DNA of 64,000 nucleotides, taken from the sequence record NC_101835.1, one strand, 5' to 3'. A model generated the notes under the pieces. That model was given only the letters and a program-made list of their open reading frames with translations. It was not told where the DNA came from and did not search any database. The translations under genes and the position numbers were made by a program. This DNA comes from a phage. Positions within the stretch are counted from its first letter, which is position 1, and every line of letters begins with the position of its first letter. Shown one piece after another: positions 11,650 to 17,811 of the stretch.

Positions 11650-12000
11650 CTAACCAGTTGTTGACATTCGAATAACTTCTTCTGGTGGCAAAACTTTGGA
11701 AAATGTGCATCTTTTACCTCTCCCTTGTGTGGATATTTCAACCACTCCCGCACATTCTAAAGTTTTAACGCACGCTGCTGCTTTTGTTTTCTTTATTCCA
11801 ACATCTGCTGCAATTTTCCTTGTGCTGGGTGTGAAGCGTGAACTTCCTCCAAGCTTATACCAGTTGTGCAGGTAGCAGTATACGATCTTGTCATACAAGT
11901 CAAGAACAACAACCTCCCCAGTTGTGTCATTCAAAACTTTTGACATAGATAGTATTTCAAGGGGGACTTTAAGATATAGCAGCTTATCCCCATCTTTCAT
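11650..12000 (-). CDS. hypothetical protein, possible DNA-binding (116 aa)
   Basis: AGGAG RBS; basic C-terminal half. Confidence 0.4.
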   Translation of the reverse strand: MKDGDKLLYLKVPLEILSMSKVLNDTTGEVVVLDLYDKIVYCYLHNWYKLGGSSRFTPSTRKIAADVGIKKTKAAACVKTLECAGVVEISTQGRGKRCTFSKVLPPEEVIRMSTTG

Positions 12001-12047
12001 ATCTCCTGATTCTCCTTGTGTGGCAATTTTCTTTAAAATAGCAGGGA

Positions 12048-12602
12048 TTACTCCCCGCTGTCAATAGCAAAACTCATTGCAATACGGTATGCCTCTTCTA
12101 ATGGTAAGAGTCTCCCCCACACATCCCAACCGACATCAAACTGTCTGCCAAACAACTGTTGTGTGGTTCCGTGAGCATGACCGAACAGTTGGACTGATCC
12201 GTGAGGCTTTCTGTTCCACTTTGCAAACTGGTAATGGCTCATACAGATCAAATTCTTGTTGTGGCGAAGCTCGTAATAATCTACAACCTCATGACCGAAC
12301 TCTTTCATAATTCTGACAGTCGTCCTTGTGTCATGGTTGCCACGAACAAGAATAATATGTCCGTTCAACATATTTAGAACATCTGGGAGCAATTTGTTGA
12401 TATTCTTATCATTAGTGCACGCAATATCTCCCAAGTGAAACACAGTGTCTGCAGGTGACACAACAGAGTTCCACTTGGTGATGATTCCCGCATTCATACT
12501 GTCAAGATTGTGATCATACTGAGATCTGTGTTTTTGACATGAATCGAACTCCATGACCCGCTGGTGGAGAAAGTGTGTGTCGCTTGTTACAAAGTATTTC
12601 AT
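12048..12602 (-). CDS. calcineurin-like metallophosphoesterase (candidate RNA 3'-end healing phosphatase)
   Basis: Motifs VTSDTHF, GDI, GNHD; start taken at internal MKYFV; directly downstream of P-loop kinase. Confidence 0.6.
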   Translation of the reverse strand: MKYFVTSDTHFLHQRVMEFDSCQKHRSQYDHNLDSMNAGIITKWNSVVSPADTVFHLGDIACTNDKNINKLLPDVLNMLNGHIILVRGNHDTRTTVRIMKEFGHEVVDYYELRHNKNLICMSHYQFAKWNRKPHGSVQLFGHAHGTTQQLFGRQFDVGWDVWGRLLPLEEAYRIAMSFAIDSGE

Positions 12603-12609
12603 ACATTCC

Positions 12610-13020
12610 TCATTTAAGTTTAATGCAGTTTTTAAGCTGGCGTTCCATACGATCCACAACCCTGTCTGGAACATCATGAATGCTTTTATTACCATGGCGG
12701 TTTTCAACCACGATCACGGTATAACTATACCCATGACTGATCGCCATGTCAATATATTCTTGCACATATTTTTCTTTTGTAAACGTATTACTTACCACGA
12801 TACGGTCGTATCCCATACGCATCATATCTTCTACGTTATCTTTGCACCATTTTGCTGCAAGTGTTACTTTACTTGCATCCCAGTTATAATTTCCATCATC
12901 GTCGTACCAGAACATGTCGTTCTCAAAATGTGGATACAGACCTTCTAAAGATAGCGCATTTGCCAGTGTTGATTTGCCAGACCCTGGTAGACCACGCACG
13001 ATATATAGCATTTTAGACAT
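12610..13020 (-). CDS. polynucleotide kinase-like P-loop kinase
   Basis: ATG at 13020 with GGAGG RBS; Walker A GLPGSGKST as in T4 Pnk kinase domain. Confidence 0.6.
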   Translation of the reverse strand: MSKMLYIVRGLPGSGKSTLANALSLEGLYPHFENDMFWYDDDGNYNWDASKVTLAAKWCKDNVEDMMRMGYDRIVVSNTFTKEKYVQEYIDMAISHGYSYTVIVVENRHGNKSIHDVPDRVVDRMERQLKNCIKLK

Positions 13021-13120
13021 AGTAATCCTCCGTTTTAATTTCAACGATAGTATACCCAACTGTTTTGTTAATTTCAAGTGTTGACACCAGGTTATTTGTG
13101 TGGCAGGATAGACTGACAAA

Positions 13121-14056
13121 ATGACAAATGAGGAACGCATGATGAAGTATTTTAATGCAGACGACCTAGTTGACAAAGGTCTTGTAACCAGCAGATATTA
13201 CCCAGATCTTGGATTAAAGATCTATAAATATGCCAGAAAAGTATTTTACAACAATTTATGGCATTTGTCTCCTCGTTTGCTGGAGTGCCGAGGCATTGTT
13301 GTAGGTAATGAAGGGAATGTTGTGGCATGGCCCTTCACAAAAGTGTTTAACTTGGGAGAAAACTCCACCAACCTGCCTGACAATAAGCTTGTGACGGCGG
13401 TAGAGAAAAAGAACGGATTCCTTGGTGTGGTATCATCTCATAAAGGTGACCTATTGTTCTCAACAACCGGGTCTCTTGATTCTCCATATTGTAACCTTGC
13501 AAAGGAAACCATCCAAGAGCAATGTGGTAATTTAGATCTTATCAAGAAGGTTATGGGCAATGAAAACATGACATTCATGTTTGAAATTTGTCACCCTTCA
13601 GATCCGCATATTGTTCAAGAAGACCATGGCGCATATTTGATAGGTTGCAGATATAATGATTCTGGAATAATGCTACCAGAAGCAGCTTTAGATGGGATTG
13701 CCAAATACCTTGGTGCAAAACGTCCTCACACTGTGCGTGAAATCCCGTTCAGCTATGCAAAAGAATTAGCTGCAGAAACAAGGGGCGAAGGGTATATGAT
13801 CCGTAAGCCTTACTACCCTTATGACCTGCAGCTGAAGATCAAGTCTCCATACTATTTGGCACGGAAGGCCGTAATGAGAGGTAAAGCATGGAAGATTTGG
13901 GATGACGATATTTTTAAACGTGTTGACGAGGAGTTTTACGGTATGGTAAAATTTATTCGTAGCAACTATACAGAAGATGTGTGGAATTGCTTATTAGAGC
14001 AGGAGCGTCGCGAGATACTGGACTGCTATTTCCACAACGAGGACTATATGCAATGA
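13121..14056 (+). CDS. rnlA: RNA ligase 1 (T4 RnlA-like)
   Basis: Recalled similarity to T4 Rnl1: LLECRGIVV, KVFNLGEN, nucleotidyltransferase motif I KKNG. Confidence 0.7.
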   Translation: MTNEERMMKYFNADDLVDKGLVTSRYYPDLGLKIYKYARKVFYNNLWHLSPRLLECRGIVVGNEGNVVAWPFTKVFNLGENSTNLPDNKLVTAVEKKNGFLGVVSSHKGDLLFSTTGSLDSPYCNLAKETIQEQCGNLDLIKKVMGNENMTFMFEICHPSDPHIVQEDHGAYLIGCRYNDSGIMLPEAALDGIAKYLGAKRPHTVREIPFSYAKELAAETRGEGYMIRKPYYPYDLQLKIKSPYYLARKAVMRGKAWKIWDDDIFKRVDEEFYGMVKFIRSNYTEDVWNCLLEQERREILDCYFHNEDYMQ

Positions 14057-14403
14057 AGAAGTGGATTGTGTGGCTTGATGATTTTAGAGATCCGTCAGAT
14101 TATGGACTCCCAGACGCTCTGTGGCTAAAGAATTCTTCTGAATTTATGGATTTTCTTAATGATAAGAGAAAGCTCTACAGACGCGTATCTGAATGGTATT
14201 TTGACAATGATCTAGGTGAAGTTCTTGAAGGGTACGACTGCTTCTCTGCGCTAGAGGAGAAACTTGTATTCGGAAAGCCACCACTTATTGACAACGTGAT
14301 TATTTTCGTGCATACTTCTAATCCATCGGCAGCTCGTAAATTTATGCTTGCTGCTGACTCATTCAAGAAGTTTGGAATAGAGATCAAACAAAACATCTAC
14401 TAA
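14053..14403 (+). CDS. hypothetical protein (116 aa), Rossmann/receiver-like N-terminus
   Basis: ATG overlaps rnlA stop (ATGA); starts MKKWIVWLDDFRDP. Confidence 0.4.
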   Translation: MKKWIVWLDDFRDPSDYGLPDALWLKNSSEFMDFLNDKRKLYRRVSEWYFDNDLGEVLEGYDCFSALEEKLVFGKPPLIDNVIIFVHTSNPSAARKFMLAADSFKKFGIEIKQNIY

Positions 14404-14411
14404 GGACATTT

Positions 14412-15173
14412 ATGCGACGACTTATTGTTATTTCTGGTGCTGGTTTGAGCGCAGAATCTGGTATTCCCACCTTCCGATCTGGTAGCACTGCAATGTGGGA
14501 GAATTTCAGCATCGATGAGGTGTGCAACATCCACACCTTTGCCAAGAACTACTATAAGGTGCATGACTTTTACAATGCACGTCGTGTAGCTCTGGGCAGT
14601 GTTGATCCTAACCTTGCACATCTTCGGATCGCTGAGTGGTATTCCCGCTGGTCTGGTCGTGTGATCAACCTTACTACCAATGTAGATGATTTGCTGGAGC
14701 GTGCTGGTGTAAAACATGAAGATATTTTACATGTCCACGGGTATTTGCCTGAAATCACCTACGAAGATGCTGAAGGTAATGATGTAATTAAAAATATCGG
14801 ATACACGGAGGTAGATACAGGCAAGTATACCTGGGTTAAGCCCAATGTAGTGTTCTTCGGTGAGGTTGCTCCTAAGTATACAGACATGTATGACCTGTTG
14901 ACATCTCTTACCAGCAATGATATGGTGATCCTGGTAGGTTGTTCTAACACAGTTATTAATTTTAACTGGGAATTGTTTCCTGCTACTTGTAAAGGCACAA
15001 AACTGCTGATTGTAAACAAGTATGATTCGCAGAGTGCAGATGGAAGTGGCATTTCACGTAGCGACCTTTATCAATATGAGGATCGCGGGATCCCTGTATG
15101 GTTTAACGGTGCTGTTGACGCTTTCTCTGATAAAGCATTTATTGAAACTGTAGAAAACTTTATGGAACTGTAA
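14412..15173 (+). CDS. Sir2-family NAD-dependent deacylase/ADP-ribosyltransferase
   Basis: GAGLSAESGIPTFR NAD-binding motif and HG catalytic motif; no zinc-ribbon cysteines. Confidence 0.7.
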   Translation: MRRLIVISGAGLSAESGIPTFRSGSTAMWENFSIDEVCNIHTFAKNYYKVHDFYNARRVALGSVDPNLAHLRIAEWYSRWSGRVINLTTNVDDLLERAGVKHEDILHVHGYLPEITYEDAEGNDVIKNIGYTEVDTGKYTWVKPNVVFFGEVAPKYTDMYDLLTSLTSNDMVILVGCSNTVINFNWELFPATCKGTKLLIVNKYDSQSADGSGISRSDLYQYEDRGIPVWFNGAVDAFSDKAFIETVENFMEL

Positions 15174-15187
15174 GAGGTGACCTTTTA

Positions 15188-15901
15188 ATGCTAAATACTA
15201 AACTGATCGACAACCTGGAAAAACTGTCTCAGCCTGAAAACTACCTTTGGTCTGCCAACTGGGTGGAAAACTGGAACCGTGTGGCAGCTAAAGTGAAAAA
15301 ATCATACACACCATTCGAATTACAGCTTAGCTTCATTGAGGAAGAGTTCAATGAGGTTTTGGAAGAGCTGGAGAAAGGTGATGGTGGAGATCACCTGCTA
15401 AAAGAGGCCTGCGATCTTCACGTTGTCACAAGTTATGCAGCTTATCTCGTTAATGACAATCACGAAAAGTGGTCAAACCTGTTTGATAATCCACGAGGTC
15501 TTAAGTTCAAGATCGGTGAGTTCTATGATACACTGATCGCTGCGAAAAACACATCCAAGCAAAGAGCGTCAGCTTACCGCTTAGCGGAGTTGTCAACAGC
15601 TTTGCTGTTCCAGCTTCGCGGCGATGTGTGCGGGATGATGCGTAAGGTTCTCAAATCTAATGACAGCAAGTTTGCACGGGTAAACCATCTACGGTATTCA
15701 CACGGTGCCAGTGCAGATATGCCTGCTGAACAACTCATAGAGTTGGAGATTAAAGATCTTGAGCGACGCTTTGATGGTCGCTACGAAGGTTTTGTTGCTA
15801 AGGAAGAGTTCTACAACGGTAATAAAGTTATCATATTCCTTGACAGTAAAGGTAAGATCATGAAGCCTTCGAGCTTCAAGGATGTAACAGAGTATATTTG
15901 A
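15188..15901 (+). CDS. MazG-like nucleotide pyrophosphohydrolase domain protein (tentative)
   Basis: EExxE...ExxD pattern (FIEEEFNEVLEELEKGD...KEACD). Confidence 0.35.
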   Translation: MLNTKLIDNLEKLSQPENYLWSANWVENWNRVAAKVKKSYTPFELQLSFIEEEFNEVLEELEKGDGGDHLLKEACDLHVVTSYAAYLVNDNHEKWSNLFDNPRGLKFKIGEFYDTLIAAKNTSKQRASAYRLAELSTALLFQLRGDVCGMMRKVLKSNDSKFARVNHLRYSHGASADMPAEQLIELEIKDLERRFDGRYEGFVAKEEFYNGNKVIIFLDSKGKIMKPSSFKDVTEYI

Positions 15902-15963
15902 CAACATAGCCGGGTAATCCCGGCTTTACTTATTATGGAAAGTATGCAGCGAGGTAGTTAGTT

Positions 15964-16272: not shown

Positions 16273-16528
16273 TCTTGCTAAACCTGTAGAAGCCCACCAG
16301 TTTGACGGAAGCTCTTCATCAGTATCTGATCTGCAACGGTGGATTGATACAGGTGTGTTTACATCGTCACCTGTTCGGACCAGAGATCTTCGTCGCATGT
16401 GTGAGCTTGTCGAGCCTTTTGGTAACCTTGTCCTGTACCAGGGAGATTGGCTAGTTGACTTTATGGGAGACTGGTTGGTAATGAGTAAAGAAGAGATGTT
16501 TAAAATTTTTAAGGAAGAGGCCGAGTAA
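16259..16528 (+). CDS. hypothetical protein (89 aa)
   Basis: ORF in co-directional gene block. Confidence 0.35.
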   Translation: MPLFNLAKPVEAHQFDGSSSSVSDLQRWIDTGVFTSSPVRTRDLRRMCELVEPFGNLVLYQGDWLVDFMGDWLVMSKEEMFKIFKEEAE

Positions 16529-17811
16529 TGCATCAAATCAAAACAACACTGTACGCACTGAACAAAGATGGCAGCTACCAACAGTGGAAAGTATTCACTG
16601 ATGGCGAAAAGGTTATCGTAGAGTTTGGCAAGCTTGACGGTAAATTGCAGTACAAAGAGACGGTATGCACACCTAAGAACGTAGGTCGTGCCAATGAGAC
16701 TACAGCTGAGCAACAGGCCGAGCTTGAGGCTATTAGCAAGTGGGAAAAACAAGTCCGTCTGGGGTATGTTGAAAACATGGAAGATTGCGAGCAGGGTGTT
16801 GATCTTTTACCCATGCTGGTGCATGACTACCTGAAGCGTGGCAAGGCACTTAAACTACCTTGCTGGATCTTGCGTAAGTTAGATGGCCTTCGTCTGCTTG
16901 TTGTTTTCCAAAATGGTGAGCCTAAATTTATTTCCCGTGGTAATAAGTCCTACCCTATTCAAGGAAAGCTTTTAGAGCAACTTCGTTCTTTCCATTCTAC
17001 CACTGGGATTAAACAACTTGATGGGGAACTATACATTCATGGTCTTCCTTTGCAGAAAATAGTGTCTCTTGCTAAACGGTGGCGCACACAGGAAGAGATT
17101 CAGGCCGAGATCGATAAAGACTATGAGGCAGATAAAAAACGCCGTCATGCAGCAATTAAGGCAGGCTTATCAACATACAAAAACTTCAACAAGGTAGATA
17201 TTCCTGTCGATGTTGAGCCTGTTCGTGATGATTTGCGTTACGGTGGGTACTGTAGCTACGATCTGGAGTATCACATTTTTGATATTCCTAGCGACAAGGT
17301 GTGGTGGGATCCAGAAACAGAGTCTGGACGCTGCAAGGATCTTATGGATGCAGAGGATACCGTTACCACTCTGATGCTTGACCATATCAAGGTTGTTGAC
17401 GCAGAGCTTGCGTACACAGTTGATCATTGCGAAGAATCTGTTGGTATATTCATGTCCGAAGGATATGAAGGTACTATCATGCGTAATTTCTGCGGTAAAT
17501 ACGAGTACGGTCAGCGAACATCTGAAGCATTGAAATGGAAAAAGTTCAACGACGCAGAGGTGAAAGTTATTGACGTTGAGAAAGATAAGAATGATGAAGG
17601 TGTTCTTATCTGTGTTGACAAGGAAGGTGTTATTGTTAAAATGAAGATGAAAGGCACGCACGAGGAGCGTAGCTATGACAGGATGCAGGAAATGATCGGC
17701 AAGTTTGTCACCTTCAAATATCAATCAAGGACAGAAGACAACAACTACCAATTCCCTGTCGGTATCTGCGTCCGAAATGTTGACCCAGACACTTGGGAGG
17801 TTCTGGAATGA
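16528..17811 (+). CDS. ATP-dependent DNA ligase
   Basis: Adenylation motif I LRKLDGLR (KxDGxR); ~427 aa. Confidence 0.7.
   Translation: MHQIKTTLYALNKDGSYQQWKVFTDGEKVIVEFGKLDGKLQYKETVCTPKNVGRANETTAEQQAELEAISKWEKQVRLGYVENMEDCEQGVDLLPMLVHDYLKRGKALKLPCWILRKLDGLRLLVVFQNGEPKFISRGNKSYPIQGKLLEQLRSFHSTTGIKQLDGELYIHGLPLQKIVSLAKRWRTQEEIQAEIDKDYEADKKRRHAAIKAGLSTYKNFNKVDIPVDVEPVRDDLRYGGYCSYDLEYHIFDIPSDKVWWDPETESGRCKDLMDAEDTVTTLMLDHIKVVDAELAYTVDHCEESVGIFMSEGYEGTIMRNFCGKYEYGQRTSEALKWKKFNDAEVKVIDVEKDKNDEGVLICVDKEGVIVKMKMKGTHEERSYDRMQEMIGKFVTFKYQSRTEDNNYQFPVGICVRNVDPDTWEVLE

Follow-up and report, generated by a model that had tools for sequence, protein, structure and literature searches.

Several described systems for RNA repair resemble the cassette reported here, which lies at positions 12048-14056 of a phage sequence (record NC_101835.1) and encodes a predicted RNA 5'-OH kinase, a metallophosphoesterase (MPE) and an Rnl1-family RNA ligase. 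The window that we analyzed is a stretch of 64,000 nucleotides from this record. In phage T4, Pnkp and Rnl1 counter the anticodon nuclease PrrC. Like the cassette in the window, this pair is phage encoded and combines a 5'-OH kinase, with which the predicted kinase here shares a clade, with a 3'-end phosphoesterase and a ligase, and the Rnl1 catalytic motifs are identical in the two. However, the T4 kinase is fused to a phosphatase of the HAD type (DxDxT), whereas the window encodes a stand-alone kinase of 136 amino acids (aa) and a binuclear MPE, and the C-terminal domain of T4 Rnl1 is about twice as long as that of the ligase in the window, the equivalent of gp078 in phage rV5. Bacterial Pnkp, of the Clostridium thermocellum Pnkp-Hen1 type (CthPnkp), likewise unites kinase, metallophosphoesterase and ligase activities, but does so in a single polypeptide; the phage has three separate genes, and its kinase and MPE belong to other clades. 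The fungal and plant systems built on Trl1 and Tpt1, including those of the Mucorales, are similar in that RazKIN is the best solved match of the phage kinase and in that the fold of the phage ligase lies near that of the Trl1 ligase domain (Trl1-LIG). In the split system of the Mucorales, with its stand-alone LIG and KIN, the components are separate proteins, as they are in the phage. The Trl1 and Tpt1 systems differ in possessing a 2H cyclic phosphodiesterase (CPD) and Tpt1/KptA, both of which are missing from the phage cassette.

For this group of phages, the cassette has already been predicted computationally. Iyer, Burroughs, Anantharaman and Aravind (2022, Viruses 14:1977; PMC9503650) described a sirtuin-centered neighborhood, 'type 2', with Escherichia phage V5 and Proteus phage Mydo as prototypes, and predicted it to be an RNA repair system that uses nicotinamide adenine dinucleotide (NAD). 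A 2021 paper on jumbo phages from the same group defined cREC and noted that operons link it to RNA ligases. The pair of cREC and sirtuin has been proposed by others to mirror CPD and Tpt1. The window carries the same locus as the neighborhood of Iyer et al., at 97% identity to the V5 prototype, with T4-like tRNA ligase, cREC, kinase, MazG, sirtuin and calcineurin-like phosphoesterase, all six in 12048-15901. That description takes the sirtuin as its center and treats the phosphoesterase as 'occasional', whereas the ligase-centered census presented here finds MPE, kinase and ligase to be a widespread core. Their account and ours are alike in being purely computational. Added here are this census, the kinase-ligase fusions and cyanobacterial trifunctional fusions found alongside it, and checks of active sites and folds. 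Our reading, to which we give a probability of roughly 0.75, is that the three proteins form a heal-and-seal pathway of three enzymes acting on RNA, most likely on tRNA cut by metal-independent ribotoxins.

A 5-kb region of the window matched 121 phage records, 120 of them at 90-99% identity and one at 80-90%, and at least 80% of the query was covered in 117 of the 121. The three genes are thus not chance open reading frames (ORFs). The matches include rV5, which is 97.0% identical over the region, and the window is therefore from a Vequintavirus, an rV5-like myovirus of E. coli. The initial annotation had placed three genes here, and all three ORFs were found at the same coordinates and on the same strands: the MPE gene at 12048-12602 on the minus strand (184 aa; rV5 gp076), the kinase gene at 12610-13020 on the minus strand (rV5 gp077) and the ligase gene at 13121-14056 on the plus strand (311 aa; rV5 gp078). 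Its statement that the healing activities are split over separate proteins agrees with this ORF listing, and Pfam and PHROG matches for each protein fit its assignments of kinase, metallophosphoesterase and ligase. In rV5 the three products are annotated as 'phosphoesterase' (gp076), 'ATPase' (gp077) and 'RNA ligase 1 and tail attachment protein' (gp078); the 'tail attachment' label was inherited from the annotation of T4 RnlA.

Gene linkage provides the strongest evidence for RNA repair. We collected 80 viral contigs from IMG/VR with a homologue of the ligase (35-88% identity) which, together with rV5, gave 81 loci whose ORFs were searched by profile. Dereplication at 80% identity left 50 ligase clusters. 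Of the 81 loci, 71 have the kinase no more than 2 kb from the ligase, and 61 have the MPE at such a distance. Counted by cluster, with a distance of 2.5 kb, 42 of the 50 have the kinase and 43 have the MPE, and the two are present together in 37. The usual layouts are MPE-ligase-kinase and kinase-ligase-MPE on a single strand; the divergent layout of the triad is confined to the rV5 group among the loci compared. For a distant homologue of the kinase (P0100), whose gene overlaps that of an MPE, no ligase was found within 5 kb, and a distant homologue of the MPE (P0282), in a region that resembles a prophage, has neither a kinase nor a ligase partner. The linkage is thus strong but not absolute.

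Fusions join the same activities in single proteins. Counted by profile A1 together with domain coordinates, and with ORF overlaps left out, the viral contigs contain 10 full-length proteins of 421-432 aa in which the kinase is N-terminal to the ligase (L036, L037, L041-L043, L046, L047, L050, L054 and L055), plus 2 truncated ones. No MPE was found within 8 kb of the fusions on phage contigs. A scan of bacterial genomes detected further kinase-ligase fusions, of ~490-500 aa, in Cardiobacteriaceae (L088, L090, L094 and L116), each followed by a phage-type MPE gene that overlaps the fusion gene in 3 of the 4 loci. The same scan identified chromosomal proteins of ~710 aa in Leptolyngbyaceae with the domain order kinase, Metallophos, RNA_lig_T4_1; such trifunctional proteins, from Leptolyngbyaceae and other cyanobacteria, are those of L089, L091-L115 and L117, an example being L098 2726-4864. 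Their ligase domain is of the phage ligase clade and 30-34% identical to gp078. Their kinase and MPE domains are of the CthPnkp type (4GP6, 3.5e-11; 4J6O, 2.5e-24; lambda phosphatase, 2.3e-6). In L098 an RtcB gene lies 1.6 kb downstream of the trifunctional gene, and no Hen1 gene is adjacent to it. By its domain matches, the cyanobacterial protein looks like a variant of Pnkp with a different ligase module. One ligase clade is thus paired, in operons and fusions, with two sets of kinase and MPE that are not orthologous. Since one of these two sets is a biochemically characterized module for the healing of RNA ends, a heal-and-seal function is by far the most economical reading. The initial annotation had likened the locus to a bacterial Pnkp broken into individual genes. 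This analogy is apt in function and architecture, as the ~710-aa cyanobacterial fusions illustrate, but it does not extend to descent, for the kinase and MPE of the phage are not orthologues of the Pnkp domains. No Hen1 or methyltransferase domain was found in the products of 11650-15901 when these were scanned against Pfam and PHROG.

The assignment of the ligase, described earlier as T4 Rnl1-like, is supported alike by family profile, fold and invariant nucleotidyltransferase motifs. The protein matches Pfam PF09511 (RNA_lig_T4_1) at 1e-14 and 55.4 bits (cut-off 28.3) over model positions 1-227 of 227, and phrog_562, the T4 RnlA family, at 1e-65. A search of the PDB with the single sequence gave no meaningful match. 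A family profile (A2) comprising 42 homologues at 43-50% identity, run against the whole PDB, had T4 Rnl1 as its sole match (2C5U and 9DO4; E about 2e-13), over the nucleotidyltransferase domain. The AlphaFold (AF2) model has a predicted local distance difference test (pLDDT) score of 90.6, and Foldseek ranked T4 Rnl1 and fungal Trl1 ligase domains 1-5 against it (E 8e-13 to 7e-12), with archaeal Rnl3 close behind and Rnl2, Rnl5 and DNA ligases far weaker. Residues R57, K74, F76, K96-x-N98-G99, F154-E155, E223-G224 and K239-x-K241 are invariant in the 42 sequences. Motifs I (the KxxG lysine nucleophile), III, IV and V are all present, as are the equivalents of the Rnl1-specific Arg54, Lys75 and Phe77: T4 Rnl1 residues R54, K75, F77, K99, G102, E159, E227, G228, K240 and K242 align to R57, K74, F76, K96, G99, E155, E223, G224, K239 and K241, respectively. 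These ten T4 residues are reportedly essential, according to mutagenesis by the Shuman laboratory. In the model, the C-terminal region 250-311 is a short helical bundle, in which E270, E271, W288 and R296 are invariant. We conclude from these comparisons that gp078 is to be classed as a member of the Rnl1 family and not as an orthologue of T4 RnlA.

The kinase belongs to a very large family (at least 7988 matches) of stand-alone proteins of ~130 aa. It matches Pfam AAA_33 at 2.7e-10 and phrog_2071 at 2e-58; its single sequence had no meaningful match in the PDB. Its P-loop, G10-L-P-G-S-G15-K16-S17-T18 (GxxGxGK[ST]), and D35 are invariant in 40 sequences, and in the same 40 there is little or no variation at S77-N78-T79, E106-N107-R108-H109-G110 and H115. 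Asp36 of MciKIN, the equivalent of D35, is essential (PMC11571804). In T4 Pnk, Arg38 and Arg126 contact the acceptor phosphate and the NTP; for the phage kinase, R108, which is near-invariant within the ENRHG motif, may be considered a candidate for the lid arginine. In a profile search of the PDB the best matches were all enzymes whose substrates are hydroxyls on polynucleotides or bound to tRNA: in order, RazKIN, another P-loop protein from fungi (9DRZ), Capnocytophaga Pnkp1, PSTK, T4 Pnk and the kinase domain of CthPnkp, with E-values of 2.9e-6 for 9D8A (RazKIN), 7e-5 for 4XRP, 8e-5 for 3ADB, 1.4e-4 for 1LY1 and 6.7e-4 for 4GP7; small-molecule kinases scored 0.01 or worse. RazKIN is a stand-alone RNA 5'-OH kinase of tRNA splicing (PMC11571804). 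The AF2 model of the phage kinase has a pLDDT of 85.9, and Foldseek placed T4 Pnk and CthPnk at the top with template modeling scores (TM-scores) of 0.71-0.78; gluconate, UMP-CMP, adenylate and shikimate kinases did not exceed 0.55. Since the E-values of the profile search are modest (1e-4 to 1e-6), the assignment leans on gene context too. With polynucleotide kinases its nearest relatives by profile and by modeled fold, gp077 is a predicted RNA 5'-OH polynucleotide kinase, in agreement with its earlier description as Pnk-like. The initial annotation had named a zeta-toxin-like or nucleotide kinase as the finding that would speak against it, and neither profile nor fold places gp077 in such a group. 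A zeta-toxin identity was considered and rejected: the Pfam model Zeta_toxin passes its cut-off (24.8 versus 22.3 bits) but is weaker than AAA_33, and in the fold search the zeta-like AvrRxo1 appears at rank 35 with a TM-score of 0.52.

The phosphoesterase matches Pfam Metallophos_2 (1.7e-6) and Metallophos (4e-6), and phrog_547, a phosphoesterase family, at 5e-51. Its binuclear-metal motifs (DxH, GD, GNHD, H and GHxH) are complete, and 38 homologues show no variation at D8-x-H10, G58-D59, G88-N89-H90, H123 and G141-H142-x-H144. With all its metal ligands invariant, the protein is a metallophosphoesterase rather than a HAD phosphatase, as had been proposed. The closest match of its family profile (A3) in the PDB was Aquifex aq_1665 (1XM7; 5.5e-27), over the full length, followed by weaker matches to the phosphodiesterases GpdQ, YfcE, Rv0805 and MJ0936. 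The top NCBIfam match was weak, to the ligase-associated DNA-damage endonuclease PdeM at 2.4e-4, far below the cut-off. Precedent comes from CthPnkp and lambda phosphatase, two MPEs that act on RNA as 2',3'-cyclic phosphodiesterases and phosphatases (PMC2190708). From its motifs and profile matches gp076 is likely an active MPE, of another clade than the MPEs for which healing of RNA ends has been demonstrated, and its predicted role is that of a 2',3'-cyclic phosphodiesterase/3'-phosphatase that would heal the 3' end.

The genes downstream of the ligase extend the cassette. The stop codon of the ligase gene overlaps the start of a gene for a cREC (cyclic-phosphate-processing receiver-like) protein at 14053-14403 (caATGa; plus strand, 116 aa, rV5 gp079), which matches PF20274 (cREC_REC) at 9e-14 and whose residues D9, D10, D51, D53, S89 and K96 do not vary among 12 sequences. 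It is followed at 14412-15173, on the plus strand, by a CobB/Sirt5-like sirtuin (253 aa, rV5 gp080) that matches Pfam SIR2 at 7e-28 and, as its best PDB match, E. coli CobB (1S5P) at 2.4e-21. The GAG-S motif, N90, D92, the catalytic H109 and Y54-x-x-R57 of the sirtuin are invariant; it has no zinc-ribbon cysteines, and no conserved CxxC pairs were found among its homologues. The Y-x-x-R pair of Sirt5 and CobB binds the anionic acyl group. Next, at 15188-15901 on the plus strand, is a homologue of MazG-like all-alpha nucleoside triphosphate pyrophosphohydrolases (237 aa, rV5 gp081) with invariant E52, E53, E56 and D76. It had no sequence match in Pfam, NCBIfam or the PDB, so this assignment relies on its match to phrog_671 (5e-22) and the EExxE...D motif. 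A terminator scan identified a GC-rich hairpin with a T-rich tail at 15908-15925 on the plus strand (7-bp stem, 6 GC pairs). By this arrangement, ligase, cREC, sirtuin and MazG-like genes appear to form one plus-strand operon that likely ends at the hairpin. Near the ligase, cREC is present in 6 of the 50 clusters, Sir2 in 7 and the MazG-like gene in 8, and the three are therefore a lineage-specific extension of the core triad. The initial annotation had described a three-gene module; the triad is borne out, but the functional unit is larger, with cREC, Sir2 and MazG-like genes accompanying the ligase. Further downstream, 2.5 kb from the RNA ligase gene, an ATP-dependent DNA ligase is encoded at 16528-17811 on the plus strand. 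Homologues of it are found nearby in 43 of the 81 loci by iterative searches with hidden Markov models, or in 42 by sequence clustering; thus DNA and RNA ligases tend to share a neighborhood in these phages. As a separate observation, 31 of the 81 loci have a gene similar to that for phosphoribosyl pyrophosphate (PRPP) synthetase, and 26 have one similar to that for NAMPT, no more than 4 kb from the cassette (for example, L007 4836-5672 and L029 11698-13512), which suggests a module for NAD reconstitution. No homologue of either was found in a search of the whole window.

Around the observed family memberships, catalytic sites, linkage and fusions, we infer the RNA or tRNA substrate, the order of the steps, the precise reaction of the MPE and a role in counter-defense as follows. 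Ribotoxins of the host or of a competitor, typically metal-independent anticodon nucleases, would cut tRNA and leave one end with a 2',3'-cyclic phosphate and one with a 5'-OH. The kinase would then phosphorylate the 5'-OH, with D35 as the general base; the MPE would open and remove the cyclic or terminal phosphate to give a 3'-OH; and the Rnl1-type ligase, adenylylated on K96, would seal the 3'-OH with the 5'-phosphate. The genes for kinase and MPE would be co-transcribed on the minus strand, and the ligase would be expressed divergently from an adjacent promoter along with cREC, sirtuin and the MazG-like protein. In the rV5-like phages these last three would probably provide a second, NAD-dependent route for 2'-phosphate ends, or clear by-products (Iyer et al. 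2022, PMC9503650).

Several points weigh against repair of tRNA by these three enzymes. The C-terminal domain of the ligase has about 60 helical residues compared with about 120 in T4 Rnl1, and against the equivalog model for T4 RnlA (NCBIfam TIGR02308) the protein scores 38.6 bits, the cut-off being 242, in a match that ends at residue 247. Because of this short domain and a score so far under the cut-off, specificity for the tRNA anticodon loop cannot be assumed. R38 of T4 Pnk has no counterpart in the kinase, in which the position is W38 (W, F, Y or H across the family). The nearest relative of the MPE, aq_1665, is a structure with no assigned function, and at E <= 0.1 profile A3 matched neither the CthPnkp phosphatase (4J6O) nor lambda phosphatase (1G5B). 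An hhalign comparison of the MPE with a genuine Pnkp-type domain, that of cyanobacterial L098, aligned 46 columns at a probability of 78%, in the GD...GNHD segment only. The MPE is thus related to the Pnkp and lambda-phosphatase clade at the level of the superfamily only. Literature searches found no biochemical or genetic work on the proteins of the cassette, including those of Vequintavirinae. Finally, the DNA ligase gene downstream leaves room for the healing of DNA ends.

The genes shared with the ligase operon raise the question of whether the MPE is the enzyme that heals the 3' end. In a eukaryote-like form of RNA repair, cREC would convert the cyclic phosphate into a 2'-phosphate by opening it, phosphorylation of the 5' end by the kinase and sealing by the ligase would follow, and the sirtuin would then remove the 2'-phosphate at the junction with NAD+, as Tpt1/KptA does; the MPE would then clear ADP-ribose cyclic-phosphate by-products or serve only as a back-up. 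This is where Iyer et al. (2022, PMC9503650) placed their emphasis. It accords with the tight packing of ligase, cREC, Sir2 and MazG-like genes, with the overlap of stop and start codons between ligase and cREC and the hairpin after the MazG-like gene, with the invariance of the active-site residues of cREC and Sir2, and with a ligase model about equally close to the fungal Trl1 ligase domains and to T4 Rnl1. The distribution of the genes nevertheless makes this route unlikely. Set against the presence of cREC, Sir2 and MazG-like genes in only 6, 7 and 8 of the 50 clusters, the 43 clusters with an MPE indicate that the MPE is the general partner of the ligase and the NAD-linked genes are specific to lineages. 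Nor do the two NAD-route genes always travel together, as cREC occurs without Sir2 in L004 and L005 and Sir2 without cREC in L007, L009 and L013. We also know of no sirtuin that removes 2'-phosphates from RNA. A combination, in which a single Rnl1-type ligase of the rV5-like phages may be served by two 3'-end routes in parallel, the direct one through the MPE and the other through cREC and the zinc-less sirtuin as hypothesized by Iyer et al. (2022), is a tentative idea that we regard as rather unlikely.

Two other explanations would remove kinase and MPE from RNA repair altogether. They could mend DNA ends, such as the 5'-OH, 3'-phosphate nicks made by host nucleases, together with the nearby DNA ligase, while the Rnl1-like enzyme either acts separately or seals DNA-RNA or single-stranded DNA. 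The DNA ligase gene at 16528-17811, with homologues near 43 of the 81 loci, the weak match of the MPE to PdeM (2.4e-4, below the cut-off) and the ability of T4 Pnk and the Mucorales KIN enzymes to phosphorylate DNA as well as RNA (PMC11571804) are consistent with this. However, the kinase is fused to an RNA ligase in every fusion found and never to a DNA ligase, kinase and MPE lie nearer the RNA ligase than the DNA ligase in nearly all loci, and the cyanobacterial fusion has Pnkp-type RNA-healing domains and is encoded near RtcB, all of which makes DNA healing very improbable. The other explanation, which we consider the least probable of all, is metabolism of NAD or ADP-ribose, in which the kinase would act, for example, on ribosides or nucleotides and the MPE would be a phosphodiesterase for ADP-ribose or cyclic nucleotides, the two countering defenses that deplete NAD or use cyclic nucleotides, and in which the ligase is adjacent only through a shared early-gene location. 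Sirtuin and MazG-like genes do adjoin the cassette, NAMPT-like and PRPP-synthetase-like genes are beside it in 26 and 31 of the 81 loci, the kinase profile matches nicotinamide riboside kinase weakly (E about 0.02), the solved relatives of the MPE include cyclic-nucleotide and glycerophosphodiesterases, and Iyer et al. use the term 'nucleotide kinase' (PMC9503650). Polynucleotide kinases nevertheless outrank small-molecule kinases in both profile and fold searches, and small-molecule metabolism leaves unexplained the kinase-ligase fusions and the many loci that have the triad without Sir2 or NAD genes.

The 100-bp spacer between the divergent kinase and ligase genes (13021-13120) was examined for promoters by a consensus scan and by direct reading. 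The scan detected a promoter-like site on the minus strand, TTGAAA-17-TATACT, with the -35 box at 13077-13072, the -10 box at 13054-13049 and 10 of 12 matches. On the plus strand, direct reading identified a TTGACA -35 box at 13081-13086, a 17-nt spacer and an extended -10 box, TGg-CAGGAT, at 13101-13109. The two -35 boxes stand back to back with 3 bp between them. In the related phage L002, whose ligase is 88% identical, the core tgtcaa-gtg-ttgact is kept and the -10 boxes are better, while the rest of the spacer could not be aligned by blastn. The shared promoter region proposed in the initial annotation is therefore plausible, a divergent promoter pair with modest comparative support. The kinase gene starts MSKMLYIVRGLPGSGKST, with a GGAGG Shine-Dalgarno sequence upstream. 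For the MPE, the ORF as listed reaches further upstream, to a TTG at 12707, and overlaps the kinase gene, but the ATG at 12602 (MKYFVTSDTHF) fits rV5 gp076 and all homologues. No Shine-Dalgarno sequence precedes the start annotated for the ligase (13121, as in rV5). Translation probably begins at 13139 or 13142 instead (MMKYF/MKYF), so that the annotation would be off by 6-7 codons; this position is preferred because it is preceded by GAGGA at 13131-13135 and matches the start in L002 and the family consensus.

A cluster of tRNA genes lies 3 kb from the cassette, a setting that favors the RNA-repair reading. It includes a tRNA-like gene of 97-99 nt at 8589-8687 on the minus strand, between tRNA-Thr and tRNA-Ser, which is also present in rV5 (L001 3590-3688) and unannotated in GenBank. 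ARAGORN reports it as 'tRNA-???' with a 4-base anticodon (atcc), and it scores 35.5 bits against the Rfam tRNA model; it could represent a tRNA with an intron, one that resembles a frameshift suppressor, or a degenerate tRNA. The tRNA-Pro gene of rV5, beside tRNA-Met (L001 3345-3421), has no counterpart in the window at about 8340-8431 on the minus strand by ARAGORN or Rfam. Sets of tRNA genes thus differ between phages that are 97% identical. The cumulative GC skew of the window has its minimum at the divergent junction (about 12000-14000). A small helix-turn-helix protein encoded beside it at 11650-12000 on the minus strand carries the PHROG label 'replication initiation protein' (phrog_12838, 8.5e-80). 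A change of coding strand may be all that the minimum reflects; alternatively, a replication origin may lie there.

The cassette is a good candidate for biochemistry, and its confirmation would not surprise a specialist. The pair of sirtuin and cREC, which was not part of the initial annotation, is of greater interest, and the literature has already drawn attention to it. If the two-route idea were true, it would mean a new catalytic role for sirtuins, as an independently arisen functional analogue of Tpt1/KptA, with the MazG-like protein clearing by-products. Confirmation of the heal-and-seal pathway would also give a function to two large, uncharacterized families, the ~130-aa 'ENRHG' kinases and the aq_1665-like phosphoesterases. 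Vequintaviruses are in use and under study for therapy and biocontrol, and their host range would be easier to predict if it were known which defenses that target RNA they can repair. More broadly, MPE, kinase and Rnl1, found together in 37 of the 50 viral ligase lineages, would, if confirmed, represent a second widespread answer of phages to tRNA-cleaving defenses, distinct from the Pnkp and Rnl1 of T4.

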